Shown here piece after piece: positions 357 to 56,702 of a DNA stretch of 64,000 nucleotides. The notes under the pieces were generated by a model. It ran no database searches and was not told the DNA's origin. It saw only the letters and a program-made list of their open reading frames with translations. Numbering within the stretch: position 1 is the stretch's first letter; the number at the start of each line of letters is the position of its first letter. Where the stretch lies: assembly GCA_015232315.1 (NCBI GenBank), contig JADFZZ010000003.1, forward strand, positions 156,732 through 220,731, read 5' to 3'. The position numbers were made by a program, and so were the translations under genes. The DNA is from SAR324 cluster bacterium. Lineage in GTDB: Bacteria; SAR324; NAC60-12.

Positions 357-580
357 AATAAACCTCCTGATAATCAATAGTTTACTGTCATATTCACTGA
401 TTTGGTCATAAACGGTTGCTAAATACAACCCACCTCAAATCGGGTAAAAAATATTGCTTTATTTATGAGGGCACACCCTAAGTCGTTTCAGAAAACGTAT
501 ACTTTGAACGGGTGAAAAATTCATTTTTTGTGTATTCTCGAAGAAGACAAAAATTACCCCACTTCTTCATCGAGAGTATT

Positions 581-1140
581 ATGATATCTATCGCATTCAG
601 CAAAAAAGACATTCAAGAACTTCAATATGAAAGGTACCATTATCCCCATCCCCGAGTTCAACAAAGGATAGAGGCCATCTATCTAAAAAGTAAAAATCTT
701 TCTCACCGTGAAATTTGTCGATTATGTCAAATTAGTGACAAAAAGTTTAAGTAAATGGTTGAATTTGTATCAAACGGGTGGATTATCAAGGCTTAAACAA
801 TTTGGAGGGCGTGGGCAACCCAGTAAACTCAATCATCATACCACTGATATAAAAACTTATTTTCAAAATAATCCTCCCCGTACCAGTGGAGAAGCCCAGG
901 AAAAAATCGAGGAACTCACAGGAATTAAACGGAGTCCCTCTCAAGTGAGAGAATTTCTCCATCGAGAAGGCTTTGATTATCGCAAAGCAGGTTGTTTTCC
1001 TGGTAAAAACCTCGATGAAACCAAATTCAATGTTTATATTCCAAATACTATGACCATTTTGATGATGTTTCTCATGCGATTAATGACTGTATTGAGCAGG
1101 CTCCTATAAACCATTCAAAAAAGATTAACTCATTGTTATC
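581..1140 (+). pseudogene. Decayed IS630/Tc1-mariner-family transposase (frameshifted, DDE core deleted)
   Basis: Track ORFs 512-754 and 708-1109 together read as the HTH N-terminus of an IS630-type transposase (REICRLCQIS / SLSKWLNLYQTGGLSRL ... SPSQVREFLHREGFDYRKA). The frame switches at the A-run 740-744. No DDE catalytic core follows. A third frame near 1060-1190 reads a transposase-like C-terminal tail (DHFDDVSHAINDCIEQAPINHSKKINSLL). Confidence 0.6.
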
Positions 1141-1148
1141 ATGGAATT

Positions 1149-2147
1149 TTAAAAATATGAGAAAAATGAACTTTTTACCCGTTTGAAGTATACTTCATTC
1201 AAGAGATTTTTTAGGGCGTTTTTTTCATTTTCGGGTGTGAACAATGCACTCCGGCGGGTGACATGTTCTCTCAAGTTTTGCAGGAAATCAGGTTGCCTGA
1301 ATATTTTTTCCATCAGAACGGCCAGAGCCTTCGTATCCTGTGCGGGGAAATATCCCTGATAATCCGATCCCAGCAAACCAATATTTCCATCAATGCGGGA
1401 TGCCAGCACAGGAGTGCCTAGAACACATGCTTCCGACACCACATTAGCGCCTCCCTCCATCAAGGAAGAGATCACCATTGCCTGACTTTTGGCTATCAAC
1501 CGACGGGTTTTCCATGATTGTAAATTGCCGAGCCATTGATAGCGGGGATTTTCTTGTGTTTCCTTAAACAATCGCTGTTCCATGTCCGCGGAAAGAGGTT
1601 CACCCGCATGAAGAATTCTCAAGGGAATATCCTGTGCCACCAGTCTTGAAGCGTCCGCTGTTCTGAAGGGATCTTTGACTGCCCTCATGTGCCCCACCAC
1701 ACAAATGTCAAACCACTCACGGTTTTTTACAGGCTGTTGCGTCAAGGGGATGCAAGACTGATAAATCAATCGTGTTTTGACCTGATTTTCAGGAGAGAGC
1801 GCCGGAATTCCCAATTCATGCAACACCACGATCCGTTCAGCCCATTCCATTGAGAGCCTGGCTTCAGCGGAATGGTGAATGTCATGATGCAGATCGGTTC
1901 CAGTCAAGACCAGAATAAGCGGACGACCTCCACGCAGGGTTTGAAATTTAAGGATGGATTCATGACTTTTTAAAGCGTGCAAGGCAATCAGCACATCACA
2001 CGATTGCCGTTCATAACGCTCTGAGATCGCAACCCGGCATCCCAGTTCCCGCAGGATTCTGCCCCAGCGGAGCGTTGTGATCCTGTTGCCTTTGCGGGAA
2101 CCCGCGGAAGCCGGTGTGACGATCAATACCTTCAGCGCTTTTTCCAT
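1149..2147 (-). CDS. GT-B glycosyltransferase, SenB-like (selenosugar/thiosugar synthase family candidate)
   Basis: 332 aa. The N-terminus VLIVTPASAGSRKGNRITTLRWGRILRELG ... LILVLTGTDLHHDI matches my recollection of the SenB-type family. The C-terminal half carries a GT4-like EGGANVVSEA region. It overlaps the upstream methyltransferase gene by 16 nt, indicating an operon. Confidence 0.6.
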   Translation of the reverse strand: MEKALKVLIVTPASAGSRKGNRITTLRWGRILRELGCRVAISERYERQSCDVLIALHALKSHESILKFQTLRGGRPLILVLTGTDLHHDIHHSAEARLSMEWAERIVVLHELGIPALSPENQVKTRLIYQSCIPLTQQPVKNREWFDICVVGHMRAVKDPFRTADASRLVAQDIPLRILHAGEPLSADMEQRLFKETQENPRYQWLGNLQSWKTRRLIAKSQAMVISSLMEGGANVVSEACVLGTPVLASRIDGNIGLLGSDYQGYFPAQDTKALAVLMEKIFRQPDFLQNLREHVTRRSALFTPENEKNALKNLLNEVYFKRVKSSFFSYF

Positions 2148-2890
2148 ACCGTCATCTCTGAAAAAGTATGTTGAAATTTTCGACTGGTTTCTCGTATGAC
2201 AAATTCCAGCGGCTCAGGTGGTGCCAGCAATTGAAAAGATGATTCAAAAATTCGGGACATCGCCTCGAACGTATTGAAAAATCGTCCATCCTCATGAAAA
2301 CCTCCAAGCCATTTGTCACGTGGAGTGAATTCTTCCAGCCAGGTGCAGGGGGTTGTTATGAATAAAATGCCTCCTGAAACCAGACGTTGTTGGATTTGTT
2401 GAAGAAACTTCGCTGGAGACGAAAGCCGGTCAATCAGGTTACAGGCAAGAACCAGATTATAATTTTTCGGTAAAAACTCCAGAAACTGTACATCTGCCTG
2501 AACGAAATCAATTTCCGCGCTATTTTGAAATAATCCAAGATTTTCAAGGTTGATCGAACGCTGTGACCGCAACAAACCTTCCTCCTGAACACTCCATGAA
2601 AACGTTCCTGTTTTTTGCAGGGTTTTGCAGGTGTTAATGAAGGAACACGAAAGATCAACACCCGTTACATGTTTAAAATCACGAGCCAACTCAAAGCAGG
2701 AACGTCCCACCGCACATCCCAGATCAAGCGCAAGTCCCTTATCCGCGTTAGCAACATATTTCCGTGCATAAGACACACATCGTTGAGGAAAATTATCTAC
2801 ATTCAAACAGGATGGTCCATAATGAAATTCGAGATACATGGAAAGCGTTTCTGAGGTTTCATAGACCTGATCAGAATCAGACATATTCAT
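2132..2890 (-). CDS. SAM-dependent methyltransferase, stand-alone OvoA C-terminal type (putative 4-mercaptohistidine N1-methyltransferase)
   Basis: 252 aa. SAM motif I is LDLGCAVGRSCFELA. The N-terminal YETSETLSMYLEFHYG is the hallmark I associate with this family. Its start overlaps the upstream gene's stop as ATGA. Confidence 0.6.
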   Translation of the reverse strand: MNMSDSDQVYETSETLSMYLEFHYGPSCLNVDNFPQRCVSYARKYVANADKGLALDLGCAVGRSCFELARDFKHVTGVDLSCSFINTCKTLQKTGTFSWSVQEEGLLRSQRSINLENLGLFQNSAEIDFVQADVQFLEFLPKNYNLVLACNLIDRLSSPAKFLQQIQQRLVSGGILFITTPCTWLEEFTPRDKWLGGFHEDGRFFNTFEAMSRIFESSFQLLAPPEPLEFVIRETSRKFQHTFSEMTVWKKR

Positions 2891-4272
2891 GACTCTCTGG
2901 CACAGGTTCGGAATCCCACAAAAACATCATTGCGGTGAGGAAGATAGGCTTGCCGATAAGTGCCCCGAATGAGCGATGAGGACGTCGCACAGGAGCCTCC
3001 ACGGGTCACTTTATGATAACCGAACTGTAACGTGGACATGAAGGGATACATATCCACACTGAAACCGTTATAGGGTAAGAATTGAGAGGAAGTCCATTCC
3101 CAGACAGTTCCAATCATCTGAATGCAACCAAATGGACTTGGGCTGGTATTCAGGGCATAAACAGGAAGTCTTGCCAACCGGGTTGCGTCCATATCCACGT
3201 TGGTTTCATCCATGATATTTCCCCAGGGATATCGGCGAAATGCAGGCGCCTCCCTGTTGTCCAGTGCGGCGGCTTCCCATTCAAATTCGGTGGGCAGTCG
3301 TCTACCGGCCCATTGGCACCAGGCTTCAGCCTCCCAATAACTGACATGTCTGACTGGATAATCAGGTTCCAGCGGAAGCCACTGGTCAAAATGTTTTTCC
3401 CACCAGCGCCCCTCCTGTTTTTTCCAGTAGACAGGATGAGGAACTTTTATATCCGCACCCTGCACCTGGAGTGGGGAATTCAGTCTGGTTTGAAGCCATT
3501 TTTTTCCACCCCAACTCCAGAGATCTTCACGTTCATAGCCTCTGTCTTCGACAAACTCCTGATATTGCTGATTGGAGACCAGTGTTTTTGAGATGCGGAA
3601 CGGTTCAAGATGATGAATGAAGCCCGGTTTTTCGTTATCAAAGGCAAAGTACTCCATGGCAAAATCCTTATGCTCGGCAGGCATACCAATGTGATAGGCG
3701 CCTCCGGGGATTTCGGTGTCTCCTGCTGATGTTTCAAAACGGAATTCAACAGCAGAATTTTGTGAAAAATCCGGTTTGGGATATCCCAATGTTTGACGAC
3801 ACCAGATCAAGGATTCGATATGCATGTTCTGATGAAAAATCGCGTATTTATAAAGATAGAGATCTTTCGGCGTCAAGGGTTTCTGGTCAATTCTGTTCCG
3901 AATGAGTTCATACACCGCGGCCATGTATGACATTGTGGTTTCACGAGAAGGAATCAATCCCGGGATCCATCGATCTTCATGATCAATGTCAAAAGAATCC
4001 CAGATATTATCAAACCCGGGCATCAATGGCGGGTTATGATCCAGTGCGCGTAAAATAAACACCTCATAAAAAAACGCGGAATGTCCCAATTCCCAGACAG
4101 GTGGATTGATTCCCTGATGATAGGGAACATTCCGTTGTTGTGCCGTCAGTGTGTCCAGCAATGAACGTGTTCTTTCTAAAGTTTGCTCAAAGGCATTCAG
4201 TAATATTTTTTTATCATCCATCAGATTTCCAGAATTAAAAGACAGGGTTGAACAGCAATTTGAGCAGGGCAA
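2887..4272 (-). CDS. Non-haem iron sulfoxide/selenoxide synthase, OvoA N-terminal / EgtB / SenA superfamily
   Basis: DinB-like N-half with an H-x3-H-x-E iron motif (HQNMHIE). FGE-sulfatase-type C-half (...WEWTSSQF...RGGSCATSS...). The start is either TTG 4272 or ATG 4221 (MDDKKILLNAFEQ). Confidence 0.75.
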   Translation of the reverse strand: MPCSNCCSTLSFNSGNLMDDKKILLNAFEQTLERTRSLLDTLTAQQRNVPYHQGINPPVWELGHSAFFYEVFILRALDHNPPLMPGFDNIWDSFDIDHEDRWIPGLIPSRETTMSYMAAVYELIRNRIDQKPLTPKDLYLYKYAIFHQNMHIESLIWCRQTLGYPKPDFSQNSAVEFRFETSAGDTEIPGGAYHIGMPAEHKDFAMEYFAFDNEKPGFIHHLEPFRISKTLVSNQQYQEFVEDRGYEREDLWSWGGKKWLQTRLNSPLQVQGADIKVPHPVYWKKQEGRWWEKHFDQWLPLEPDYPVRHVSYWEAEAWCQWAGRRLPTEFEWEAAALDNREAPAFRRYPWGNIMDETNVDMDATRLARLPVYALNTSPSPFGCIQMIGTVWEWTSSQFLPYNGFSVDMYPFMSTLQFGYHKVTRGGSCATSSSLIRGTYRQAYLPHRNDVFVGFRTCARES

Positions 4273-4320
4273 ACTGAAAACTAAAATTCAGTCTTATTGA
4301 AAGGTGCCCCTCCGACCAAA

Positions 4321-4513
4321 TTATTTTCACCTGTGCAGGTACTTTTTTGCCACGAAGTACACAAAGAACACAAAGTAAAAAAGGGAATATGCACCAGAAA
4401 ACTTGAAAATCAGGGTTTTACTGAGGTCTTCATTTATATAAAAACCTTTTTATTCGTGTTCTTAGCGTTCTTAGCGGCTCATTTTCAAACCACCTGCACA
4501 GGTGGAAAATAAT
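4321..4513 (+). repeat. MITE-like palindromic element, family 2 (~180 bp), copy 1
   Basis: Terminal inverted repeats are ttattttcacctgtgcagg / cctgcacaggtggaaaataa. The internal arms cacgaagtacacaaagaacacaaag and cgtgttcttagcgttcttagcgg are mutually complementary. Near-identical copies occur at 25139-25325 and 41188-41376. Confidence 0.85.
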
Positions 4514-4548
4514 TGCCAGAATCAATTTCAATGGTTGTAATGACGGCT

Positions 4549-6291
4549 CTAATCCCAACGTTTGACCACTCTGCCTGAATGCGTATTTTTGGAAAAACCG
4601 GCTGGTGTCACCGCGACTTTTCCATTGACGAGAACATACTCAATTCCTGACGGATATTGATTCGGAACTTCAGGGGTGCTGTTACTGCGGATGGTTGCAG
4701 GATCAAACACCACCAGATCGGCATAATATCCTTTTCTGACCAGGCCCCGTTTTTTGATGCCAAGTTGTCTGGCGGGCAAACTGGTCGATTTCCGGATCGC
4801 TTCAGGCAGAGTCAGTAATTTTTCATCCCTGACATATTTTGAAAGAATTTTGGGATAGGTGTCATAAAACAAATGGCTGGGTTTCCCGAAGCCCATCAGG
4901 ATGGTATCTGTGACAATGGACACGTTGGGATCCTGAATGGCCGCATAGACGCTCCGTTCTGTGAATTCATCGCCGGGAAAAGTCGGGGTTTCAAAGACCA
5001 GCACATTTCCGTCTTCTTCAACCAGAATGTCACAAATGGCATCAAACGGATGTTGTCCCCGTTCCTTGCCGATCTGTACAAAATGTTTGCCTTCATATTG
5101 TTTGTTCTGTGCACTCACCACACTCATTAAAAATATGGACTTAAATCCCATCACCTTGAAAAAATTCATGGACCATGTGTTTCCCTCACGATGAGGCCAT
5201 TCTGATTTTCCACTACGAATGGCACGGTAGATGATCCGGCGAATATCCTTGTCCGCAATGCGTTGTAGCACTTTTTGCTGATCTCCGGTGAGCACCCACG
5301 GAGGAAAAAACGCCAGGGCATGCGTGAATCCTGTTCCGGTCGGCATGGCGTCAATGCCAAGGGGAAGTCCCCGGGCAATTTCACGGGTGATGGTCTTCAA
5401 TTGTTTTTTGAGCGGCAGATCAAGTGGTAGCGGAACTTTAACTTTTTTATACAACTGCGCCATGGCCCGAGCGGCGGAATTGGTGACAGCATCAACCATT
5501 TGACTGACATGCGGCAACCAGAAAAAATGCGAAATCTGGACTTTGACATTGGTTTTCCGGCTGATCTCAAGCACTTCTTCAATGGCTTGGGGCAATGTGT
5601 TGGAATAGCTTCTCAAATGACTGGTGAAAACCGCGTCATTGCGTACCAGAATTTCAGCCAGGTTTTCCAACTCCTGTTCGTCGGAAGAGACCCCCGGGAA
5701 ATACATGAGTCCCGTGCTCATTCCCAGTGCTCCGGCTTCCAGTCCTTCTTCGAGGTCATAGCGCATGGTCTTCATGGCGTCAGGAGATGGCAGTTCATTT
5801 TTTAATCCCTGCGCGGCAATCCGCAACATTCCATGAGGAACCAGCAAACCGCAGTTCAGGGCAAGTCCACCATCCGCATCCAGGGCCTGAATAAACTCCC
5901 CGAATTTTTCCCAACGGATGAACGAATTGGCATCCTGACTGATCATCGCTTCCATGTAGGTGAAGGCGGCAGCAACATGATTTTTTGACAGAGGAGCCAT
6001 TCCCATTCCGCAATTGCCACCCACGAAGGTCGTGATTCCCTGACGCAAAAGCGGTTCAAGAATATCCGGATGATGCGGCATGTGAATTACCAGATCCGCA
6101 TGGCTGTGCACATCAATGAATCCGGGACACACGACATTTCCGCCGGTGTTGATGCGTTGTGCCGCTTCGGCATGCCGTAAATCGCCAATATCCACGATCC
6201 GGTCATCACGTATGCCAACATCAGCGACATAAGGTGCTTTCCCACTGCCGTCATGAATGAGTCCATTTTCCAGAATGATATCAAATTCCAT
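4549..6291 (-). CDS. D-aminoacylase / N-acyl-D-amino-acid deacylase family amidohydrolase
   Basis: GFIDVHSHAD metal-binding motif and amidohydrolase-3-like layout, with C-terminal ...YADLVVFDP.... ATG 6291 has GGTGGA upstream. The track ORF starts at GTG 6306. Confidence 0.75.
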   Translation of the reverse strand: MEFDIILENGLIHDGSGKAPYVADVGIRDDRIVDIGDLRHAEAAQRINTGGNVVCPGFIDVHSHADLVIHMPHHPDILEPLLRQGITTFVGGNCGMGMAPLSKNHVAAAFTYMEAMISQDANSFIRWEKFGEFIQALDADGGLALNCGLLVPHGMLRIAAQGLKNELPSPDAMKTMRYDLEEGLEAGALGMSTGLMYFPGVSSDEQELENLAEILVRNDAVFTSHLRSYSNTLPQAIEEVLEISRKTNVKVQISHFFWLPHVSQMVDAVTNSAARAMAQLYKKVKVPLPLDLPLKKQLKTITREIARGLPLGIDAMPTGTGFTHALAFFPPWVLTGDQQKVLQRIADKDIRRIIYRAIRSGKSEWPHREGNTWSMNFFKVMGFKSIFLMSVVSAQNKQYEGKHFVQIGKERGQHPFDAICDILVEEDGNVLVFETPTFPGDEFTERSVYAAIQDPNVSIVTDTILMGFGKPSHLFYDTYPKILSKYVRDEKLLTLPEAIRKSTSLPARQLGIKKRGLVRKGYYADLVVFDPATIRSNSTPEVPNQYPSGIEYVLVNGKVAVTPAGFSKNTHSGRVVKRWD

Positions 6292-6349
6292 AAAGGGTAT
6301 TTCCACCAGGGTTCAAGGAATAGTGCATGAAGATCGCTTCAAAGAATAC

Positions 6350-7261
6350 TCATTCTTCACGCAGTGATGAGGAGGATGTGGGGGTTGGCACTATTTTTCC
6401 CGCATTGAGAGAACGGAGTGTTCCGTTTACTGCTTCGGAAGAACGCTCTGTCGCAAGGGGAATGATCACCGGCAGGGCATGTCTCACAATGCTGACAGAT
6501 ACTTTTTGTGCTTTGGTATGAAAATCCAGAATGGAAAACTCCAACGGGTTGATCAGTGATTCAGCCATCACTTCTTCAGAGTTCCCCACTGTTTTCGGCC
6601 GCTTTTTGTATAAGGATTCCAACCAGGGTTTCCAGTTTTTTAATCCGTTTTTTGCAGGTTGCAGGCGTAATCTGCTGTCATTGTGGATTTCATTCAGTGT
6701 CATGCTCATGGAATTCAGTGACGTGGGATGCAAATACACTTTGTGGCAATAAGTCCGATCGGGTAGTGGTTGATGGTCCAGGCAAACTGAAAACCGGCGT
6801 TCCCCCTCTGGAATTGTGATCAGGGCATCTTTCCAGAAATAGATTGTTTCTCTGGAACGATATTCATAATCAGCACGAGCCAGATCAAAGGTAAAAGTAT
6901 GGCCTGCCTTGAAAACCTGCATGGCATGATTCAGGGATTGCGGACGGATCAAAGAGCCAAAAATTTCAAAATGACTCAAGGGCCAGAATCCCGGACTCAG
7001 GTTTTGCCGCAACTCATCAGGGCATTTCATCAATGCGTTCAGCGCATGGAACATGGTGAGAGAATTGCCCAGATAAATGATTTTTTTCCACCCGTCAGAG
7101 ATCATCTGGGACGTCAGGTCAGCAATCGACAGTTGAGGTGTTGTGCACACAAAGGTGAGAGGCACACAGTGTTCTTCAAACAGCGACTGGTGCTGTTTCC
7201 AAAACAGCGAAATCGGCTGATTGTCAAAACTGTCGATGATGAAGCACGTAGAAAGTTTCAT
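6350..7261 (-). CDS. Hypothetical protein (faint, degenerate diacylglycerol-kinase/YegS-like N-terminal fold)
   Basis: 303-aa ORF filling the gap between neighbouring genes. KKIIYLGNSLTMFHALNALM sits where lipid kinases carry GGDGT. No confident family assignment. Confidence 0.5.
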   Translation of the reverse strand: MKLSTCFIIDSFDNQPISLFWKQHQSLFEEHCVPLTFVCTTPQLSIADLTSQMISDGWKKIIYLGNSLTMFHALNALMKCPDELRQNLSPGFWPLSHFEIFGSLIRPQSLNHAMQVFKAGHTFTFDLARADYEYRSRETIYFWKDALITIPEGERRFSVCLDHQPLPDRTYCHKVYLHPTSLNSMSMTLNEIHNDSRLRLQPAKNGLKNWKPWLESLYKKRPKTVGNSEEVMAESLINPLEFSILDFHTKAQKVSVSIVRHALPVIIPLATERSSEAVNGTLRSLNAGKIVPTPTSSSSLREE

Positions 7262-7268
7262 GGCATTC

Positions 7269-7880
7269 TCAAGATTGCGTCAATGGCTGAAGCGCCTGTT
7301 CCACCTGATCATGAAGTTCTTCCAGTGAGCCATTGTTGGTAATCACACAATGAGCGTAAGCCTTCCGTTCTTCATGGGTTAGCTGAGCCTGCAAGCGGGC
7401 TCTTGCCTGATCTTCAGTATAATTCTTATAGTCAACCAGACGTCTAATGGCATGATTCTCATCCGTGGTCACCACCCACACTTCATGACAGGACTTATGC
7501 CATCCGGCTTCAATCAGTATCGCGGCTTCAAGAAAAACAATTTTCTGCCCGGAAAGTTGTTTTATTTCTTCAGCAAACATCCGGGCAATCTGCGGACGGG
7601 AAATAGCATTGAGCTGTTTCAGTTTTTCCGGATCGGCAAACACTACATTTCCAAGTGCCTTGCGGTTGATGGTCTGGTCTTCATTCAAGATATCCGGCCC
7701 AAATATTGCTACTATTTTTCTGTAGCCTTCGTGTTCGGGGTGCAATACCCGATGTCCCAACTGGTCCGCGTCAATGACAGGCAGATTTTTTTGTTTTAAA
7801 TATTGTGTAACCGCGCTCTTGCCTGAGGCGATACTTCCTGTGATGCCAATAATTTTAGGGCTTGAGGGATGAGGGAGCAT
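7269..7880 (-). CDS. coaE: Dephospho-CoA kinase
   Basis: 203 aa. P-loop IGITGSIASGKS followed by VIDADQLGHRVL, the typical CoaE layout. Confidence 0.9.
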   Translation of the reverse strand: MLPHPSSPKIIGITGSIASGKSAVTQYLKQKNLPVIDADQLGHRVLHPEHEGYRKIVAIFGPDILNEDQTINRKALGNVVFADPEKLKQLNAISRPQIARMFAEEIKQLSGQKIVFLEAAILIEAGWHKSCHEVWVVTTDENHAIRRLVDYKNYTEDQARARLQAQLTHEERKAYAHCVITNNGSLEELHDQVEQALQPLTQS

Positions 7881-7968
7881 ATTGTTTTTATCAGCCGACT
7901 TGAATTTTAATAAAGCAACAGCATAATGCGCTGAATTTTTTTATGATAAACCTGTTATGAGAGAGACC

Positions 7969-9363
7969 ATGAGTATCGTTGTTCAAAAATTTGGAGGAAC
8001 CAGTCTGGGAAACAGTGACCGATTGAAGAATGTCGCGGGAATTATCAAAAATACCATCACCTCCCGGGATCTGGTTGTGGTAGTTTCAGCGCTGAGCAGT
8101 TATACCAAAGCGGAAGGAACCACCAACCGGTTATTGCAGGCAGGACAACTTGCCATTCAGGGCGGAGATTTTTCCAAGGTGATTGATCTGATTGAAGACA
8201 CCCATTTGACGGCATTGACACAATCCATCAAAAATCCGATGATCCGCGAAGAAATCAAGGAATATATTCATCATGAACTTCGATCTCTCAAGTCTTTTCT
8301 CGAAGCGATCCATGTGATTCGGGAAATTTCACCCAGATCGCATGACGTGATTGTCGGAACCGGCGAACGGCTGTCTGCCAGGCTGATGTCAGGGGTGTTG
8401 AGAGATCAGAATGTGGATGCGGTGTATGTTGATCTTTCCGAGATTTTACCGGGAACCCGCAACGTGCTGGATAAAAGCTATTACAGAGATCTGCAGAAAC
8501 TGATTGTAGAACATCTTCCCGAAAATCGGAAAACTGTAGCCATTGTCACAGGTTTTTTTGGTTTTGTTTATGGTGGCATCGTTGCCAGTATCGGACGTGG
8601 CTATTCAGACCTGACAGCCGCACTGATCGCCGCGGAACTCAAGGCTGAGGAATTACAAATCTGGAAAGAAGTGGATGGAATCTTCACCGCGGATCCCAGA
8701 AAAGTACCCACCGCCACAGTTCTGGATTACATCACTCCGGCAGAGGCTGCTGAATTGACCTATTTCGGTTCGGAAGTGTTGCATCCCTTCACCATGGAAC
8801 GGGCTATTGAAGCGTCTGTGCCGATTCGAATCAAAAACACCTTCACGCCTGAAAAACCGGGAACCGTTATTTTACCGTCTTCTCAAACTGTTGCACAGAC
8901 GAACCAGAAACAAACCGCTGTCGCTGTGACCACAAAAAAAGACGTAGTGATTATCAACATTCACTCCAACCGGATGCTGCATGCGTCAGGATTCATGTCC
9001 AAAGTGTTCAGCACTTTTCAGAAATTCGGAGTGATCGTGGATCTGATCGCGACTTCCGAAGTCAATATCTCCTGCACTTTAGATGACGCGGACCATCTGG
9101 AAGAGGTGATCAGGGATCTGGAGGGACTGGCCGATGTTACGATTTCCAGGAACAAAGCTATTCTAAGTCTGGTGGGCGAACGCATGAAATATGTTCCCGG
9201 AACGGCTGGTAAAATGTTCACGGCGCTGGCGCAACATAACATCAATATTGAAATGATTTCCCAGGGCGCGTCTGAAATCAATATTTCCTGTGTCATCCGT
9301 CAGGAAGATGCTGAGAAAGCGTTGAATGTGATCCATAAGACATTTCTGGAAAATAACGGATGA
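7969..9363 (+). CDS. Aspartate kinase (monofunctional, with C-terminal ACT domains)
   Basis: MSIVVQKFGGTSLG N-terminus. ACT-like C-terminal repeats (ILSLVGERM..., NISCVI...). ATG 7969 follows GAGAGAG. The track ORF starts at 7957. Confidence 0.9.
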   Translation: MSIVVQKFGGTSLGNSDRLKNVAGIIKNTITSRDLVVVVSALSSYTKAEGTTNRLLQAGQLAIQGGDFSKVIDLIEDTHLTALTQSIKNPMIREEIKEYIHHELRSLKSFLEAIHVIREISPRSHDVIVGTGERLSARLMSGVLRDQNVDAVYVDLSEILPGTRNVLDKSYYRDLQKLIVEHLPENRKTVAIVTGFFGFVYGGIVASIGRGYSDLTAALIAAELKAEELQIWKEVDGIFTADPRKVPTATVLDYITPAEAAELTYFGSEVLHPFTMERAIEASVPIRIKNTFTPEKPGTVILPSSQTVAQTNQKQTAVAVTTKKDVVIINIHSNRMLHASGFMSKVFSTFQKFGVIVDLIATSEVNISCTLDDADHLEEVIRDLEGLADVTISRNKAILSLVGERMKYVPGTAGKMFTALAQHNINIEMISQGASEINISCVIRQEDAEKALNVIHKTFLENNG

Positions 9364-9986
9364 AACAACAACAGATTGACCAGCTATTCATAAAACTGAG
9401 CGAAGCCATTCCAGATCCGACCACGGAATTGGTTCATAACAATCATTTTGAATTGCTGGTCGCTGTCATGTTGAGTGCCCAGGCAACAGACAAGTCCGTC
9501 AATCAGGTCACGCCAGCGCTCTTTGCGAGTTTTCCAACACCGGCTTTGATGGCAGAGGCAGGCGAACACGCCCTTCTGGAAAAAATAAAAACCATTGGAT
9601 TGGCAAAAACCAAGGCCCGAAATATTATAAAAACCTGCCGGATTCTTGTAGAAAAACATCAGGGAGAAGTGCCGGCAGACCGTGACGCCTTGGAAGCCCT
9701 TCCCGGTGTGGGTCGAAAAACAGCCAACGTGATTCTGAACACAGCGTTTCATGTACCAGTGATCGCGGTGGACACCCATGTTTTCAGGGTCTCAAACCGA
9801 ACCGGACTGGCCCCCGGAAAAACGCCGCTGGAGGTAGAAGAAAACCTGATGAAGTTTGTTCCCGAACGCTGGAAACAAGATGCCCACCATTACCTGATCC
9901 TTCACGGACGTTATGTCTGCAAAGCCAGAAATCCCACATGTGACACCTGCGCTGTTTCGCTGGAATGTGAACATCATGAGATTTGA
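9360..9986 (+). CDS. nth: Endonuclease III
   Basis: HhH-GPD motif LPGVGRKTANVIL and a C-terminal 4Fe-4S cluster loop C-x6-C-x2-C-x5-C (CKARNPTCDTCAVSLEC). Start overlaps the aspartate kinase stop. Confidence 0.92.
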   Translation: MKQQQIDQLFIKLSEAIPDPTTELVHNNHFELLVAVMLSAQATDKSVNQVTPALFASFPTPALMAEAGEHALLEKIKTIGLAKTKARNIIKTCRILVEKHQGEVPADRDALEALPGVGRKTANVILNTAFHVPVIAVDTHVFRVSNRTGLAPGKTPLEVEENLMKFVPERWKQDAHHYLILHGRYVCKARNPTCDTCAVSLECEHHEI

Positions 9987-12052: not shown

Positions 12053-14053
12053 TTAGACAAACGTTACGCCCAGCCAACGGCAAACATGATTCACGATACT
12101 ACACAGGATAATGGCATACGCCACGACAGCAATCATAATCGTAGAGGCGGCGCGGTTACCTCTTTCCTTGAACAGAACAATGATCGCGTTGATGCAAGGA
12201 GCCAGAAAAATCATCAGTAACAGATTCACAACCAACTGAAGGTTGGTATAAAGTCCTCGCAGGTGTTCAAGCTCAGCGGCACCACTTTCTCTACGAATCA
12301 TTGTTTTGATAAAAACCTGGATACTTTGCTCAGGCAACCCCAAAGCACTGTCGATCATTGGCCCAAAGGCTGTCTCAACAAATCTCAATCCCCCAAATCG
12401 CTGAAACAGAAAAACAACAATCGCGGCAAATATGAAAACCGGGACGGCTTCTTTCATGAAAAAATAAGTTTTGATGGCTGACATCTTGACTACATCCATC
12501 AATTTGGGAACACGCATGGTTGGTATTTCAAACACCATGGAACTGCTGCCGCCAACCATGATTTTATTGGCCACCATCCCCGCGAAAATCAGTTGTGAAA
12601 AAATGAAGAAAAACACTGTAATTGTCGCTGAGACCGGCAGGCTGTCCAGAATAATAAACATCACCGCGATCAATGGGGCACAGGGCATACAGAGAAAAAG
12701 TAAAAAAGAAGCAATGTTCTTTTCTTTATCGGTATTCAGGACTCGGGTTGTCAGGATTGCCATGGTGACACAGGAAAAACCCATGGTTAATGGAATGACG
12801 CCCTTACCGTTGAGTCCCATTTTTCTGAAAATGCGATCCAGCAAAATGGCAATACGAGGTAAATATCCGGAATCTTCCAAAATCCCGAAGGCGATGTAAA
12901 AGCAGAATATGACGGGCAATACCAACCCTAACGCCAGAAAAACCCCTGTGGGCAACACGCCAAAATCCGGGTCAACCAGCATATCTCTGAAAAATTCACT
13001 GGGAAGGTAAGAAACAAGTTGTGTTGTCCAGGGGATCAGGAATCCATCAAACAGGGTGCCATTGATGGTATCCACCAGAAACGTCGCGCCAAACGCCCCC
13101 ACAAAATAATACATCAGGGTCACCACCCCAAACGCAATGGGAATACCAGTGCTGAGCTGGGTACACCAGTCACCAAAGCGTAAAACCAAGGGATTTTCTG
13201 AAGGGGGTTCTTTGGTTTGCACCTCTTCAGCAAGTTTTGTTGCTTCTTTGTTGTAAAGGTTACTGAGGGGAATTTCAAAGGTGGTTGGGGATTCTTGCCG
13301 GTATTCTTCAGCCAACTGTTGTAACTGTAGTAGCATTCCGGATCCGTATTTTCGTTCAACATAGGTTTCAATCCCGATGTCTCCTGACAGCAGAAGCAGG
13401 CCAATCGCACGGGATGACAGTTGTTGCGGCGATAGCAGTTTTTCTACCAACTCCAGGTACTGTTCAACCTTATCGGAATAGTGGAGTAAAGCCTTCGGTT
13501 TTCTGGCGTGTCCTAATCCTGCGACTAATTCCGGAACTCCGATGCCTTCCCGGGCAATGGTGGTGAAAACAGGTATCCCTAATTTTTCTGAAAGTTTGTG
13601 ATAATTGATCGAAATGCCTCTCGAGGGTGCTTCATCCACCATGTTCACTACAAACACCATCGGCAGACCATACTCCGCATACTGTAATGTGAGGGCCAGT
13701 GATTGTTTCAATTTTTTAGCGTCTGCTAACAATATGATGCAAGGCTGATGGTCTTCAATTCCAGGCATTAAGAACACATCTCGTGAGGCGCGTTCATCTT
13801 CATTTTGCGAAAAAAGAGAATAAATGCCCGGCGTGTCATAAATGGAACTGTCCAGACCTTTTATCTGCCCCCTCGACACTGAAACGGTTGTTCCGGGAAT
13901 GTTAACACTCAAATTCTGAGAACCAGACAGTCTGGAAAACAAGGTTGATTTACCAACATTCATGTTTCCAATGATGACCGCGTTAGACGCAGCCAGGGTC
14001 GACGTTTCGCAGGCATCGTGTTGATCAGAATGGCATTTTTTACATTTAGTCAT
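12053..14053 (-). CDS. feoB: Ferrous iron transporter FeoB
   Basis: 666 aa. G-domain GNMNVGKSTLFSRLSG followed by a polytopic membrane domain. It carries an unusual Cys/His-rich N-terminal extension, MTKCKKCHSDQHDAC. Confidence 0.92.
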   Translation of the reverse strand: MTKCKKCHSDQHDACETSTLAASNAVIIGNMNVGKSTLFSRLSGSQNLSVNIPGTTVSVSRGQIKGLDSSIYDTPGIYSLFSQNEDERASRDVFLMPGIEDHQPCIILLADAKKLKQSLALTLQYAEYGLPMVFVVNMVDEAPSRGISINYHKLSEKLGIPVFTTIAREGIGVPELVAGLGHARKPKALLHYSDKVEQYLELVEKLLSPQQLSSRAIGLLLLSGDIGIETYVERKYGSGMLLQLQQLAEEYRQESPTTFEIPLSNLYNKEATKLAEEVQTKEPPSENPLVLRFGDWCTQLSTGIPIAFGVVTLMYYFVGAFGATFLVDTINGTLFDGFLIPWTTQLVSYLPSEFFRDMLVDPDFGVLPTGVFLALGLVLPVIFCFYIAFGILEDSGYLPRIAILLDRIFRKMGLNGKGVIPLTMGFSCVTMAILTTRVLNTDKEKNIASFLLFLCMPCAPLIAVMFIILDSLPVSATITVFFFIFSQLIFAGMVANKIMVGGSSSMVFEIPTMRVPKLMDVVKMSAIKTYFFMKEAVPVFIFAAIVVFLFQRFGGLRFVETAFGPMIDSALGLPEQSIQVFIKTMIRRESGAAELEHLRGLYTNLQLVVNLLLMIFLAPCINAIIVLFKERGNRAASTIMIAVVAYAIILCSIVNHVCRWLGVTFV

Positions 14054-15281: not shown

Positions 15282-15716
15282 TTATACGAAATGAACATGT
15301 CCTTTGGCCTCCAAATCCCTGAGGACCGTTTGGCAAAACCCTTGTTTTCCTCTGATAAGAAAGGTTTTACGCTCTCCTTTTTCATGTGTAAACAAGCCCC
15401 ACAACAGTTCAACTTTTTTATAATCGGGGCTGGTCCACTCAATTTTGAATTCTTCATCGACCTGAGTCATCTTTTTAAGGGAGAAACCTAAGGAAGAGAC
15501 TGGAATCTGCTTACGTTTCCGCTTAAAGGTTTCTTCTGTGATGACGATTGGTTTTGCTTGTTCAAGCTCATTTGTTTTATGCGTTTTTTGTGTAATGACA
15601 ATTGGCACAGTTTCAATTTTTTCCTGCCGCTGAGCGTTTTTCCCCACTGTAGAAACAGCAATCAGTTTTCTATTCATTTTTGAATTTTCCGGCAATTTTT
15701 TGAATTTTTTATGCAT
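15282..15716 (-). CDS. Hypothetical protein, translationally coupled to mamK copy 1
   Basis: ATG 15716 follows GGAGGAG with a 5-nt spacer and overlaps the mamK-1 stop (ATGCATAA). 144 aa with a Lys-rich N-half. The C-half reads FSLKKMTQVDEEFKIEWTSPDYKKVELLWGLF.... No family recognised. Confidence 0.6.
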   Translation of the reverse strand: MHKKFKKLPENSKMNRKLIAVSTVGKNAQRQEKIETVPIVITQKTHKTNELEQAKPIVITEETFKRKRKQIPVSSLGFSLKKMTQVDEEFKIEWTSPDYKKVELLWGLFTHEKGERKTFLIRGKQGFCQTVLRDLEAKGHVHFV

Positions 15717-17241
15717 TAACTCCTCCTTCAATGACTTCGCCTAATTCATTCCAGTTTTCAACTGGAACCTCCATCGCAATTTTCAAAGCTCCATGACATC
15801 CCGCAAAATCAGGATCTTCAACACCTGTCACATAGACCGACCCATAATCCCTCAGATGTTCCTGCAAAACTTTATCCAGCCCTTTTATCCTGGAACAACG
15901 TCCTGAAAGATAGATGTTATTCAAGGTATCATCCTGATCTTCCGGATCAATCCGTTGTAGCAGTGTTTCCATACAATCCAGGATCGGTTCGATCAAGGTT
16001 TCACAGGCTGTTCTGATTTCTCTGGTAAGGTCAAACTGTTGAGGTTTCCCCGCTACCCTTAACGTCACAATCACCGATTTTTCGGGTTTACCGACAAAGG
16101 CATGCTGCTCTTTGATCGATTGTACCTGTTTTTTTGAAATTTGAACTTCGGGAAAGTGTTCTGAAATCAATTTTTTTAATATGTGATCAATATAATCCCC
16201 TCCCTGGGCAATCGTTAATTGCTCCTCGTCTTCAGGAATTTTTCCTGTCAAAACACAGATATCCGTCGTGCCGGCACCAATATCGATCACAATCGCATGA
16301 TTCAATTTCCCTAATCCATAGGCCACCATGAATGGCTCAGAAACAACAAGTGTTGTCCCTGCCAAATCCCGGGCCAGTTTGAGGAGATCTTCCTTGTGGT
16401 TGAATGATGTTCTTGCGGGGACACCAATGACAAGGGAAATGTCGTCGTGTTCCCCGGGTTGTGCCAGCTTCACCGCATGCTCAAGAATTAATCTGGCAGA
16501 ATCCATTTCTGTTGCTTTGATCACACCAGCTTCCAGTGGATAATGGATATCAAGCGATGATTGTTTCGAAAGAGCCTCTTCGCCAATCGCTTTTGTTCCA
16601 TTCAACAACTGAGCTCCAATAAGATCCTTCGGATAACCCACGACTGAAGGAAACATGGCTTTTGCGCCTCTATTGGATTGAACCGCGGTTTTTGATGTAC
16701 CCAGTTCAATGCCGATTCTCAGTTGATTGCTTGAATCTTTATTCATCGCGGAACCCCCAGGTTGTTTTGAATCAGTGGTCATTATTTTTTTAGCGGCCTG
16801 GATGTTTTGTGCCAGTTCCTCAACTTTACGGAGCAAGCTCCCGTGTGAGGGTTTTTGCGGTGCGGCTGGTGATTCAACGGATGATTTCGTTGATTCTTTT
16901 TCATGAGTTGCTTCACGTTTCAGGGGCTCCTTTTTTGTTTTATTGTTGCCTGATTGAGCGTCTGCTTCTGTTGTGAGCGATTTTGGGCCTGTCTTGTCAT
17001 TCCTGGCCGTGGTTCCCAGTATGGCATTTTTCACCAGGGATACGGCAGAGGTTTTATCTTTTTTTTCAGGCTCATCCGCAGATGCGGATTCATCAATTTT
17101 TTCAGAGGCCTTAAACGTTTCCACAACATGTTCTTTGGCGGTTAGGGTTTCCTCAGTCTGATCATCAGCATCTGGTTGACCAGCAATCTTGTCAGGATTG
17201 CCTAATAACATCCCCATGATGTCTGGTGTGTTTTTACGCAT
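15709..17241 (-). CDS. mamK: Actin-like magnetosome filament protein MamK (copy 1) with a ~170-aa acidic/Lys-rich N-terminal extension
   Basis: The C-terminal ~337 aa are colinear with the copy at 31042-32067 and carry actin-fold motifs (LRIGIELGTSKT, VIDIGAGTTDI, IYLSGRCS). ATG 17241 overlaps the parA-like stop (ATGCGTAA). An internal alternative start lies at ATG 16746 (MNKDSSNQLRIG). Confidence 0.85.
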   Translation of the reverse strand: MRKNTPDIMGMLLGNPDKIAGQPDADDQTEETLTAKEHVVETFKASEKIDESASADEPEKKDKTSAVSLVKNAILGTTARNDKTGPKSLTTEADAQSGNNKTKKEPLKREATHEKESTKSSVESPAAPQKPSHGSLLRKVEELAQNIQAAKKIMTTDSKQPGGSAMNKDSSNQLRIGIELGTSKTAVQSNRGAKAMFPSVVGYPKDLIGAQLLNGTKAIGEEALSKQSSLDIHYPLEAGVIKATEMDSARLILEHAVKLAQPGEHDDISLVIGVPARTSFNHKEDLLKLARDLAGTTLVVSEPFMVAYGLGKLNHAIVIDIGAGTTDICVLTGKIPEDEEQLTIAQGGDYIDHILKKLISEHFPEVQISKKQVQSIKEQHAFVGKPEKSVIVTLRVAGKPQQFDLTREIRTACETLIEPILDCMETLLQRIDPEDQDDTLNNIYLSGRCSRIKGLDKVLQEHLRDYGSVYVTGVEDPDFAGCHGALKIAMEVPVENWNELGEVIEGGVNA

Positions 17242-17971
17242 AGACCCTCTCGGTAAGTTGTTCATAATCTATTGCGCCTTGAGATTGAGGAGCAAATTCA
17301 TAGATGGTTTGCGCATATCCCGGTGCTTCAGAGAGTCGAACATTGTAATGAATCGGATTACAAAGTCGATCAGGATAAAATTCTTCCAACTGTTTTAATA
17401 TTTCTACAGATTTTTTAACGCGTCCATCCAGAAAAGTAGGGACAATATAGCGTAATTTTAAGTTTTTATTGTATTTCTGAACAGCTTCCACACTCTTGAT
17501 AAAGCTTGAAAGGCCATGAATGGTCATGACTTCCAGTGAAATCGGGCACAGAATTTCTTCAGCATAAAACAGGACATTCAAGGTCACTGAATCCCACCCC
17601 GGTGAGGTATCGACCAATACAAAATCAAACTTTTTTTCAATGGATGTGAACGCTTCTGAAAGGGTGTATTCCCCCCCGAGGTCTGTTCTGTCAATCAAAC
17701 GTTTGATCCCGGCTATTTCACGTCCTCCCGCGATAATCCACAGATTTTCTCTGACTTGAATGGTTGCCTCATCCACGCCACAGTCCCCAGTGATCACATC
17801 TGACAGATTCACTTTAGGTTTCAAACCAAACATGAAAGACACCTGCCCCTGTGTATCAGTGTCCAACAGCAAGACCCTGGCCCCTTTTTTCGCAAGGCCG
17901 GCAGCGAGATTCACTGCCGTCGTGGTTTTTGCGACCCCCCCCTTACTCAATGATATGGCAATTTTTCTCAT
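17234..17971 (-). CDS. ParA/MinD-family P-loop ATPase
   Basis: Deviant Walker A SKGGVAKTT, then LLLDTDTQG and Walker B FVLVDTSPG. ATG 17971 follows GGAGA. The track ORF begins at TTG 18016. Confidence 0.85.
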   Translation of the reverse strand: MRKIAISLSKGGVAKTTTAVNLAAGLAKKGARVLLLDTDTQGQVSFMFGLKPKVNLSDVITGDCGVDEATIQVRENLWIIAGGREIAGIKRLIDRTDLGGEYTLSEAFTSIEKKFDFVLVDTSPGWDSVTLNVLFYAEEILCPISLEVMTIHGLSSFIKSVEAVQKYNKNLKLRYIVPTFLDGRVKKSVEILKQLEEFYPDRLCNPIHYNVRLSEAPGYAQTIYEFAPQSQGAIDYEQLTERVYA

Positions 17972-18558: not shown

Positions 18559-20091
18559 ATGAGTTCTGATACTGGAAATTGTCCCAGAAGATTGCGCAAA
18601 TATTTTTACATGATTCCAATCGCTTCAGTCGCGCTTGTTTTTTTCCTGTACTGGAACGATATGTTCTTTGACAATCGTACTCACAAAGGGACGACCGCAG
18701 AGATGTTCAGTGTGGCCTTCAATGCGTTGACAGGAGGTGATAATCCGACGACTTCTGTACAGGCACGTCAAAATCCAATGCCTTATGCCCAAAATCCTGT
18801 TGCCGTGCCTGTGGCGCAAGCCCCTCAGAATACGATGATATATGGACAACAGCCCTTTGCGAATTCGCCTCAAAATGCCACGACTCTTGCCCAAACTCCC
18901 TTTGTCGTGCCTGTAGTCCAGGCCCCTCAGAATAAGATGAGTTTTGCGCAAACCCCCTATGCTGTTCAGGTTGTTGAATCGCCCTTCACTCGAGTTGCTG
19001 AGTTTGCTAAACAAACTGTAGTGAATATCAGTGCGTTGCGTTTTACCGGTGCGCAACAAAATATGCAACCGGATACTCAGCAACCTACGTTCACCGCACC
19101 ATTCAGTGGTCAGGCCGTTGAAAGTATCGGTTCGGGGGTGATTGTTACGCAAGATGGGTATATTGTTACAAATTTTCATGTTGTTGAAAATGCTGATGAA
19201 ATTTTTGCGACAGTTTTTTTAAATAATGGATCGACCCAGTATCATGCCGATGTCATTCAATTATCTGAACTGCTGGATCTCGCGCTCATCAAAATTGAGC
19301 CGGCGACGCCTTTACAACCGGCACCTTTGAGTGATGAGAATCGCGTCATCAGAGTGGGCGAAGAAGTGTTGGCCATCGGCAGTCCTTTTGGTCTTGATCA
19401 AACAGTGAGCAAAGGAATCATTTCAGGCTTAAAAAAATCAATCCGGATTGATAACATTACCCACAAAAACCTGATCCAGACTGATGCCGCGATTAATCGT
19501 GGAAACTCCGGAGGCCCGCTGGTTGATATGGCCGGTTATGTGATCGGAGTTAACACCGCGATTTTTACTCCAACCGCTTCTTTCGTGGGAATCAGTTTTG
19601 CCATCCCATCGACCGAGGTTATCGAATTTCTGGAAGGTCTCATCACACTCCCCACGGTGCAGCCAAACTTGAACACTCCTGCAACAGCAACTCGAGTCGC
19701 AGGGCAAAAACTACCCTCAGTTATTGGCGAAAATCGCTTTTCAATACCTCCGTATGTTCCTTCGCAGGGGATGAACGTTGCCTTTAATCCCAATGGAAAC
19801 ATTGTGGAGTGGATGGGCGCCGAACTGACCGACATCACAACGGCCATACAAAAGAATTTTAATCTGGATAGCGGTGCGTTTCTGACCAATGTGTATTCCG
19901 GATCGAATGCCGACAAGGCCGGATTGCAACCTGGCGATGTGATATTCAGGGTTGATGGCAGGCCCGTTGGAAATGTCAATGAGCTGATCAATTTTGCTGA
20001 TCAAAATGGCGGTACCGCTCGTGTGTCAGTCATCAGGAATGGTCAAAAACGCAACATTGATATTGATATTGACAACAATAAAGCCCCTTGA
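18559..20091 (+). CDS. mamE: MamE-like HtrA/trypsin-type serine protease with one PDZ domain and no magnetochrome (copy 1)
   Basis: 510 aa: TM, Gln/Pro-rich linker, intact triad contexts TNFHVV / LDLALIKI / GNSGGP, and a C-terminal PDZ (GLQPGDVIFRVDG). No CxxCH motif anywhere in the protein. Confidence 0.85.
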   Translation: MSSDTGNCPRRLRKYFYMIPIASVALVFFLYWNDMFFDNRTHKGTTAEMFSVAFNALTGGDNPTTSVQARQNPMPYAQNPVAVPVAQAPQNTMIYGQQPFANSPQNATTLAQTPFVVPVVQAPQNKMSFAQTPYAVQVVESPFTRVAEFAKQTVVNISALRFTGAQQNMQPDTQQPTFTAPFSGQAVESIGSGVIVTQDGYIVTNFHVVENADEIFATVFLNNGSTQYHADVIQLSELLDLALIKIEPATPLQPAPLSDENRVIRVGEEVLAIGSPFGLDQTVSKGIISGLKKSIRIDNITHKNLIQTDAAINRGNSGGPLVDMAGYVIGVNTAIFTPTASFVGISFAIPSTEVIEFLEGLITLPTVQPNLNTPATATRVAGQKLPSVIGENRFSIPPYVPSQGMNVAFNPNGNIVEWMGAELTDITTAIQKNFNLDSGAFLTNVYSGSNADKAGLQPGDVIFRVDGRPVGNVNELINFADQNGGTARVSVIRNGQKRNIDIDIDNNKAP

Positions 20092-25138: not shown

Positions 25139-25325
25139 AGAGCTGTGCAGGTACTTTTTTAGCCACGAAGTACACGAAGAACACAAAGTAAAAAAGGGAA
25201 TATGCACCAGAAAACTTGAAAATCAGGGTTTCACGGAGGACTTCATTTATATAAAAAACCTTTTTTTTCGTGTTCTTAGCGTTCTTAGCGGCTCATTTTC
25301 AAACCCACCTGCACAGCTCGAATAA
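25139..25325 (+). repeat. MITE-like palindromic element, family 2, copy 2
   Basis: Near-identical to 4321-4513. Termini are gagctgtgcaggt / acctgcacagctc. Track ORF 25059-25325 merely reads through it. Confidence 0.85.
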
Positions 25326-25749: not shown

Positions 25750-25944
25750 ATGCCAAGTATAGTTGTAGGAACATTGTCTTTTGCTTTAGGATTGTGGAGT
25801 TTGTTCATTTGGTGGTGGTCTGTGGCTGAATTTTTACGGGGATTCACACCTATCGCTCTCATATTGTTCGGACTGATTGCCATAGGCGCATCAATGTCCA
25901 CAAAGGAAAACAGGACAAAGGACAAAAAGGATAATGACTTATGA
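25750..25944 (+). CDS. mamI: MamI (copy 2)
   Basis: ATG 25750 lies 7 nt after GGAG. 64 aa: MPSIVVGTLSFALGLWSLFIWWWSVAEFLRGFTPIALILFGLIAIG. The stop overlaps the mamE-2 start (ATGA). Confidence 0.85.
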   Translation: MPSIVVGTLSFALGLWSLFIWWWSVAEFLRGFTPIALILFGLIAIGASMSTKENRTKDKKDNDL

Positions 25945-30816: not shown

Positions 30817-31041
30817 TCATTTTCTAAAATTTGTAATCGTAAAAAATTTCCTGCTGTCAATAATTTGGTGAAGAAATCCTGTGGTTTCCCACGATGTCAT
30901 CCCCGTGAAAACGGGGAACCAGGAGTGCGCCGATGGATTCCGTGTCAAGCACGGAATGACGCCGGGCAAAGGTTTGAACCGGATGCCATCGTCAGAAAAT
31001 TTACAGCGGGAAAAATTATTAGTCCAATCATGAGGGGGTAT

Positions 31042-43693: not shown

Positions 43694-43703
43694 TCAGGAA
43701 AAG

Positions 43704-56642: not shown

Positions 56643-56702
56643 AAACAATAAGGAATTGTAAAAGAATCAATTGTAAAAGTTTGCTCGTGCCCTACGTCCC
56701 GT

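Follow-up and report, generated by a model that had tools for sequence, protein, structure and literature searches.

What does a three-gene operon near one end of a 64,000-nucleotide (nt) stretch of DNA from a SAR324 cluster bacterium (assembly GCA_015232315.1, contig JADFZZ010000003.1; hereafter, the window) produce, and is its chemistry that of sulfur or of selenium? From the gene logic, the initial annotation of the window had proposed that a C-Se bond-forming enzyme, an N-methyltransferase and a SenB-type enzyme together make ovoselenol, and this is indeed the combination described by Kayrouz et al. (10.1101/2024.04.10.588772). Judging from its predicted proteins, we propose that the operon very probably encodes ovoselenol (ovs) biosynthesis, in the order ovsA-ovsM-senB, in a magnetotactic SAR324 bacterium. 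Its genes are the following:

2887..4221, minus strand: ovsA, predicted non-haem-iron selenoxide synthase (5-selenohistidine-forming), 444 residues, start ATG at 4221; mechanical open reading frame (ORF) up to a TTG at 4272
2132..2890, minus strand: ovsM-like gene, predicted S-adenosylmethionine (SAM)-dependent 5-seleno/thiohistidine N-pi-methyltransferase, 252 residues (250 from 2884); TIGR04345, OvoM/OvsM/OvoA-C structures
1149..2147, minus strand: senB, predicted selenosugar synthase (Se-glycosyltransferase), 332 residues; TIGR04348, SenB structures, conserved residues

In the ORF listing these appear as three consecutive minus-strand frames of 461 (2887..4272), 252 (2132..2890) and 332 residues (1149..2147), exactly as first annotated, and the peptide motifs quoted at that time (HQNMHIE, YETSETLSMYLEFHYG, LDLGCAVG, GNRITTLRWGRILRELG and LTGTDLHHDI) are all found in their translations. 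The tight coupling described for them is also seen on the reverse strand: the stop of the iron-enzyme gene and the start of the methyltransferase gene overlap as ATGA at 2887-2890, and the reading frames of the methyltransferase and glycosyltransferase genes overlap by 16 nt, at 2132-2147. For ovsA, the ATG at 4221 is the most probable true start, giving a predicted protein of 444 residues, because part of the TTG extension falls beyond the block conserved in a sister genome, the SAR324 metagenome-assembled genome (MAG) GCA_015231535.1, and because the in-frame start codons upstream differ between the two genomes. Likewise, native OvsA of Halomonas (Vreelandella) utahensis starts at a Met aligned with this ATG, and the gene of the sister MAG is called as 444 residues. 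Translation of ovsM may start at 2890, within the ATGA overlap, or at the next ATG, at 2884, which is the 250-residue form picked by gene callers; the genes abut in both cases.

The first gene encodes a protein with the Pfam domains DinB_2 (PF12867, residues 27-138) and FGE-sulfatase/C-lectin (PF03781, residues 187-456), both above cutoff. Against proteins of known structure it scores 588 bits with OvsA (8U41/8U42), 178 with SenA, 173 with EgtB and 87 with OvoA (8KHQ); among the NCBIfam models it reaches 423 bits with the SenA model NF041186 (cutoff 420) and 270 with EgtB (below 360), and it fails TIGR04344 ovoA_Nterm with 129.5 bits versus a cutoff of 400. An OvoA-type enzyme is ruled out by this last score and by the 87 bits to 8KHQ. 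The initial annotation had called this protein an OvoA-N/EgtB-type iron enzyme; the HQNMHIE motif, the DinB and FGE-sulfatase halves and a place in the SenA/EgtB branch bear out one part of that description, whereas the OvoA-N type does not hold, and the C-Se bond-forming enzyme is a SenA/EgtB-branch OvsA instead of the OvoA-like one that had been supposed. The active-site columns were read from an alignment of 131 OvsA-family sequences with SenA, in which the native numbering reproduces that of 10.1101/2024.04.10.588772. Residues Y398, M401, Q405, Q430 and A431, together with the three iron-binding histidines, are present in the window protein and in 131/131 family members; the five corresponding columns read Y/Y/W/N/F in SenA, and those of its hercynine-binding Tyr366, Asn395 and Phe396 read M, Q and A in the window OvsA, which contains DMYPFMSTLQF and TYRQAY. 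The composite active-site motif of OvsA has been defined as ...HYMQAYR, and the triple change M401Y/Q430N/A431F turns OvsA SenA-like, from histidine and C5 to hercynine and C2 selectivity; the same study treats the position of OvsA in the SenA/EgtB branch, and not in the OvoA branch, as a point of 'convergent evolution' (10.1101/2024.04.10.588772). Since the 588 bits to 8U41 resolve the borderline SenA score, and OvsA-type residues occupy all diagnostic columns, gene 1 is OvsA, the predicted ovoselenol selenoxide synthase; SenA is ruled out by the 410-bit better match to the OvsA structure and by M/Q/A in place of Y/N/F.

The NCBIfam SenA model cannot separate OvsA from SenA, because the window protein, which lacks the SenA residues, still scores 423 versus 420. 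NCBIfam appears to hold no OvsA-specific model. OvsA proteins go by 'selenoneine synthase SenA', 'ergothioneine biosynthesis protein EgtB', 'hercynine oxygenase' or 'SUMF1/EgtB/PvdO family' in public records, and the ovoselenol enzyme is thus systematically misannotated.

The third gene is senB, encoding a predicted selenosugar synthase. Its product scores 374.9 bits with TIGR04348 (cutoff 300) over model positions 1-309 of 310, contains Pfam Glycos_transf_1 and aligns over its full length with the SenB structures 8JJQ/8FBX at 207 bits. Relative to 8JJQ, and in Variovorax paradoxus numbering, the equivalents of N20, T23, H58, T83, T85, D86, Q131, R155, V157, K158, E231 and E239 are conserved, the replacement of R61 by K being the single exception among the catalytic, selenophosphate-pocket and sugar-donor residues checked. 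In SenB, K158 cleaves the Se-P bond, N20/H58/R61/T83/T85/R155 line the selenophosphate pocket and N20/T23/E231 form the sugar-donor triad (PMC10891094). The EGGAHV motif reads EGGANV in the window, as it does in the SenB of the Halomonas ovs cluster. The earlier recognition of a SenB-type glycosyltransferase agrees with the TIGR04348 score and with the conserved catalytic lysine and pocket, and the profile searches suggested at that stage gave scores above cutoff for both the SenB and the OvoA C-terminal models.

The second gene, annotated as a stand-alone OvoA-C-type methyltransferase, answers to that description with 265.3 bits to TIGR04345 ovoA_Cterm (cutoff 170) over model positions 1-242 of 242. 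Pfam finds SAM-methyltransferase domains in its product, which matches OvoM (9BXL, 218 bits), OvsM (9BXH, 207 bits) and the C-domain of OvoA (8KHQ, 200 bits) end to end, the alignment with all three including the C-terminal FVIRETSRKFQHT motif. Its predicted membership of the OvoA-Cterm/OvoM/OvsM N-pi-methyltransferase family is firm.

By analogy with the characterised pathway, we propose the following chemistry and product, together with a SelD encoded at another site of the genome. Selenophosphate would be made by a selenophosphate synthetase (SelD/SenC) encoded outside the window, and SenB would place it onto UDP-GlcNAc (GlcNAc, N-acetylglucosamine) and hydrolyse the Se-P bond through the conserved lysine, equivalent to K158, to yield the selenosugar SeGlcNAc. 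OvsA, with its three-histidine iron centre, O2 and the catalytic tyrosine, would form a C-Se bond between this selenosugar and C5 of free histidine, and the selenoxide would then eliminate the sugar to give 5-selenohistidine. N-pi-methylation of the latter by the methyltransferase and SAM would lead to ovoselenol, a strongly reducing selenol antioxidant.

Several observations weigh against this reading, and are given here and with the alternatives they bear upon. The functions of the SAR324 enzymes are predicted from sequence. Promoter and terminator scans of positions 900-4700 returned chance-level counts (7 vs 6.3 expected and 4 vs 3.7, respectively), with no minus-strand promoter found upstream of ovsA, and a search for sequencing runs carrying the cassette, for expression and coverage, matched no runs.

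To the same side belongs the lack of a nearby selenophosphate synthetase. As the initial annotation had reported, no SelD/SenC-like sequence is found in any frame of the 64-kb window (tblastn, best E = 0.25), the queries being the SenC fusion (Pyr_redox-SelD, 757 residues) of the H. utahensis locus and the plain SelD of a Cocleimonas locus, and none is found in 17 kb of the sister MAG. One may therefore suppose that the genome has no selenophosphate synthetase and that the product is an ovothiol-like sulfur compound or derives from another chalcogen donor, and the methyltransferase does in fact score slightly better with the thio-specific OvoM (218 bits) than with OvsM (207 bits). Nevertheless, OvsA genomes as a rule have senC unlinked: among 80 OvsA loci of GTDB species representatives, SelD lies at most 10 kb from ovsA in only 9 and is missing from this neighborhood in 71, and the ovs genes, four in all, can be chromosomally separated (10.1101/2024.04.10.588772). 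For these two reasons a window without senC represents the common state of ovs loci and is uninformative. The 11-bit gap between OvoM and OvsM is within noise at about 45% identity, the selenophosphate pocket and the Se-P-cleaving lysine of SenB are conserved, and OvsA belongs to the branch that uses selenosugar and not to the cysteine-using OvoA branch; a sulfur product is thus improbable, and selenium remains the chalcogen that we favor.

It may also be asked whether the operon is a decaying remnant, silenced by an insertion sequence (IS) that hit senB and by the loss of senC. Such a view draws on the rearranged and repeat-rich flanks, on the lack of a recognisable promoter and, above all, on an IS630-type element that sits inside the senB reading frame:

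500..1190, plus strand: non-autonomous IS630/Tc1-type element relic, 691 bp, with frameshifted transposase remnants (ORFs 512-754 and 708-1109) of helix-turn-helix (HTH) type only
500..528, no strand: left terminal inverted repeat (TIR), preceded by TA at 498-499, from the inverted-repeat search
1162..1190, no strand: right TIR, followed by TA at 1191-1192 and giving the new senB 3' end and stop, from the inverted-repeat search

The initial annotation had placed an IS630 relic below position 1149; a relic of this type is present, but it spans 500-1190 and overlaps the senB 3' end. Its inverted repeat (I2) is 32 nt long and 88% complementary, with the matching repeat 633-662 nt away and a TIR of about 29-32 nt, and the TA on both sides represents the target-site duplication. 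The transposase remnants give weak hits to HTH_23, HTH_32 and HTH_33, and in the Pfam search no DDE domain accompanies these split HTH remnants. The relic shares with IS630/Tc1-mariner elements and their miniature inverted-repeat transposable element (MITE) derivatives the TA duplication, the TIRs of about 30 nt and the N-terminal HTH transposase remnants, and differs from them in its missing DDE catalytic domain, its split frame, its hits below the Pfam cutoffs and its presence as a single copy in the window. The element entered at a TA that lay 9 nt ahead of the original senB stop, so that the last two senB codons were replaced and the element supplies the last 14 (13 residues and the stop). 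Residues 1-319 of SenB are ancestral and the last 13, YFKRVKSSFFSYF, are encoded by the terminal repeat of the element; the sister SenB ends in ...LLNEVIQ, followed by the stop, and that of the window in ...LLNEVYFKRVKSSFFSYF.

The replacement of the SenB C-terminal tail by IS-derived sequence counts against an operon in use. By alignment, though, the change is confined to the tail past the last conserved, structure-aligned residue and beyond model position 309 of 310, so that only a non-conserved tail is altered, and the catalytic residues are all kept. All three ORFs are intact in both SAR324 genomes, and the ratio of nonsynonymous to synonymous differences per site (pN/pS) between them is 0.16 for ovsA, 0.14 for ovsM and 0.19 for senB, on only 19, 6 and 24 differences, respectively, which indicates purifying selection. 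The GC content of the cassette is 46.4%, versus 44.9% for the window. Intact frames in two genomes, low pN/pS and host-like GC together point to a long-resident gene set under selection, neither a recent import nor a decaying relic, and we consider it improbable that the pathway has been silenced.

A further possibility concerns the last step only. In a neighbour-joining tree the methyltransferase falls outside the gamma-proteobacterial OvsM clade, being 42-46% identical to OvsM, OvoM and OvoA-C alike; in a search of 5.8 billion proteins it is at most 49% identical to anything beyond its own 90%-identity cluster, in which the 99% identical protein of the sister MAG also sits, and its best relatives outside SAR324 include OvoA-fused domains. 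It is the operon context that suggests its role as OvsM and its preference for selenium over sulfur. These points, too, speak against ovoselenol itself, and a methyltransferase lineage separate from OvsM could yield a variant product, such as unmethylated 5-selenohistidine or a differently methylated selenohistidine. On the other hand, the protein scores well above the cutoff of an equivalog-domain model for 4-mercaptohistidine N1-methyltransferase, the end-to-end alignment with OvoM, OvsM and OvoA-C extends to the C-terminal motif, and N-pi methylation is the activity of all known family members, which makes a variant product very unlikely. Finally, a selenoneine (sen) cluster with a SenA acting on hercynine at C2 is exceedingly improbable, for although the NF041186 score barely exceeds its cutoff, many OvsA homologues carry the NCBI names 'selenoneine synthase SenA' or 'EgtB' and SenB is common to both pathways, the much better match to crystallised OvsA, M/Q/A in place of the Y/N/F hercynine triad, three positions that decide substrate and regiochemistry (10.1101/2024.04.10.588772) and the coupled ovothiol-type N-pi-methyltransferase, absent from sen clusters, all contradict it, and no EgtD-like gene was recognised by eye among the window ORFs of at least 180 residues, no profile search having been made.

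Returning to the ovoselenol operon, how it came to its present surroundings may be read from its boundaries with the sister genome and from the repeats that flank it:

1191..4260, minus strand: conserved cassette block, 3,070 bp, 98.4% identical (blastn) to positions 1377-4446 of contig L081 of SAR324 MAG GCA_015231535.1
4266..4300, no strand: 35-nt sequence abutting the upstream break point, recurring at 38588-38622 (blastn)
4331..4508, no strand: MITE-like hairpin repeat of about 175 nt (I3) in the intergenic region upstream of ovsA, with further copies at 25143-25316 and 41191-41369 (blastn, inverted-repeat search)

On both sides of the 3,070-bp block the flanks of the window and of the sister contig are unrelated (blastn and break-point alignments), even though the two genomes are about 97-98% identical. 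Downstream, identity ends at the TA abutting the TIR of the element; upstream, it begins 39 nt before the ATG at 4221. A simple IS insertion was rejected as the whole cause of the downstream break, because the sequence past the element does not continue that of the sister, and further rearrangement has plausibly taken place there by recombination between element copies. The surroundings of the three-gene block thus seem to have been reshuffled by repeats, with the IS630-type insertion downstream and the MITE-like repeat upstream.

The copies of the MITE-like hairpin are 93-95% identical, and the one at 25143-25316 lies just upstream of a MamE-like gene starting at 25941. The window (30840-31007, 46459-46509, 56675-56911) and L081 (4531-4805, 6219-6386) also have short intergenic repeats in common, 28-168 nt long and 86-100% identical, and in L081 the region just downstream of senB is among them. 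Rfam searches, one of the complete window and a more sensitive one of positions 900-4700, and a tRNA search returned no riboswitch, no selenocysteine tRNA and nothing else of relevance, the sole weak Rfam hit being the MITE hairpin. Synonymous sites of the aspartate kinase gene at 7969-9363 have diverged more between the two SAR324 genomes (pS 0.15) than those of the ovs cassette (0.02-0.07); the counts are small, and the difference hints at a more recent ancestry of the cassette than of its surroundings, possibly through recent exchange between strains. Two other proposals were rejected. Recent horizontal transfer from gamma-proteobacteria does not agree with the host-like GC, with an OvsA at most 63% identical to others, or with a cassette as similar to its sister copy (98.4%) as housekeeping DNA is (97.2%), and a functional link to the upstream amidohydrolase gene (4549-6306) is not supported by the sister genome, in which the cassette is not accompanied by that gene.

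By sequence identity, the window comes from a SAR324 bacterium conspecific with MAG GCA_015231535.1, because that MAG has the closest OvsA (P0001, 98%) and the closest match (P0121, 98%) to the aspartate kinase encoded 3.7 kb from the cassette in the window, and its sequence L082 is 97.2% identical to window positions 5268-9806; further hits of the aspartate kinase are mostly to SAR324. Magnetotactic SAR324 MAGs are known from Lin et al. 2020 (PMC7602337), and a magnetosome gene island occupies positions 10349-38256 of the window, about 6 kb from the ovs cassette. MamK (15709-17265 and 30865-32067), MamM (32320-33222), MamB (36810-37676) and MamA (35401-36063) score above the curated NCBIfam cutoffs, and best hits below cutoff are to MamO (33225-35072), MamE-like magnetochrome proteases (18559-20091 and 25941-28679), MamP (20363-21118) and MamQ (36070-36813); FeoB (12053-14053) and further cation diffusion facilitator (CDF) transporters are encoded alongside. 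The short repeat at 30840-31007 runs into the N-terminal extension of the second MamK ORF; the MamK model begins to match this ORF at residue 65, and the true start of the ORF is probably further downstream. Linkage between the ovs cassette and the magnetosome island is not conserved, since the cassette of the sister MAG stands in a different context. Directly downstream of the island, between 39740 and 58050, lie large genes with an N-terminal response-regulator receiver and a CheA/histidine-kinase-like ATPase C-terminus, which may form a signalling system linked to magnetotaxis:

39740-41161, 41426-43693, 43578-46031, 50578-54426 and 56917-58050: receiver/CheA-like kinase genes

Ovoselenol was described in 2024 from 228 OvsA sequences, almost all gamma-proteobacterial, and SAR324 is not mentioned in that paper (10.1101/2024.04.10.588772). 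Likewise, the 80 OvsA genome loci from GTDB species representatives belong overwhelmingly to Marinobacter and other gamma-proteobacteria, with a few from Burkholderiales/Limnobacter, one from Verrucomicrobiota and none from SAR324; the best OvsA match in that scan is 61% identical, and apart from the sister MAG every other OvsA is at most 63% identical to that of the window. In a neighbour-joining tree rooted on SenA, the two SAR324 OvsA proteins share a long branch close to the family base, where the internodes are too short to fix the branching order. One might go further and regard the SAR324 operon as an independently assembled, self-contained ovoselenol module, with a basal OvsA, a methyltransferase from another lineage and a compact unit moved by repeats; we find this conceivable but rather doubtful. 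If it were true, ovoselenol biosynthesis would be of greater age and of wider taxonomic range than the branch described in 2024 as 'recently evolved, almost exclusively gamma-proteobacterial'. The presence of a selenol antioxidant in iron-biomineralising, magnetotactic bacteria, if confirmed, might serve to buffer iron-driven oxidative stress. With this locus the predicted ovoselenol pathway reaches the SAR324 phylum and a magnetotactic host. The locus also exposes the naming error by which OvsA passes for SenA or EgtB in public records, a consequence of the NCBIfam SenA model not distinguishing OvsA from SenA, and its cluster, being a minimal set of three translationally coupled genes, would lend itself to heterologous production; it leaves the known chemistry unchanged.

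Of the loci examined, only the window and the sister MAG have their genes in the compact order ovsA-ovsM-senB, with frames that overlap. The H. utahensis locus runs senB-ovsA-ovsM, with senC past ovsM and a PhnD-type ATP-binding cassette (ABC) transporter beside senB, and the nearest relatives outside SAR324 (L083 and L084) read senC-senB-ABC transporter-ovsA(-ovsM). This transporter, made of a binding protein, an ATPase and a permease, lies between senB and ovsA in L038 (5828-8809), L083 (4054-7070) and L084 (4385-7414); it occurs in 8 of the 80 OvsA loci and likewise in the two metagenomic relatives, is missing from the window, and may be connected with the ovoselenol pathway as an uptake system.

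The ovs cluster of H. utahensis and Marinobacter vinifirmus (OvsA, OvsM, SenB, SenC; 8U41/8U42) shares with the window the three enzyme families, an OvsA 55-61% identical with an identical composite active-site motif, a stand-alone OvoA-Cterm-type methyltransferase after ovsA and, in Halomonas, the EGGANV variant of SenB. The window differs from it in its SAR324 host, in its overlapping genes, in having neither senC within 64 kb nor the PhnD-type transporter, in a methyltransferase that stands outside the OvsM clade and in the long basal branch of its OvsA. With the SenA/SenB/SenC cluster of V. paradoxus (8K5I, 8JJQ) it has in common an orthologous SenB (207 bits, catalytic residues), and SenA, the sister subfamily of OvsA, shares its fold and its selenosugar donor; the SAR324 operon departs from that cluster in the M/Q/A residues, in its imidazole methyltransferase and in the predicted selenylation of histidine at C5 rather than C2. 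The ovothiol pathway (fused OvoA, 8KHQ; OvoB; stand-alone OvoM, 9BXL) shares the TIGR04345 methyltransferase family and the 5-chalcogen N-pi-methyl-histidine scaffold, whereas the window has a non-OvoA iron enzyme, would use a selenosugar made by SenB instead of cysteine as donor and would need no OvoB-type lyase. Taken together, the SAR324 locus is the pathway known since 2024 in a new phylum and in a new, compact gene order, and not a new kind of system.

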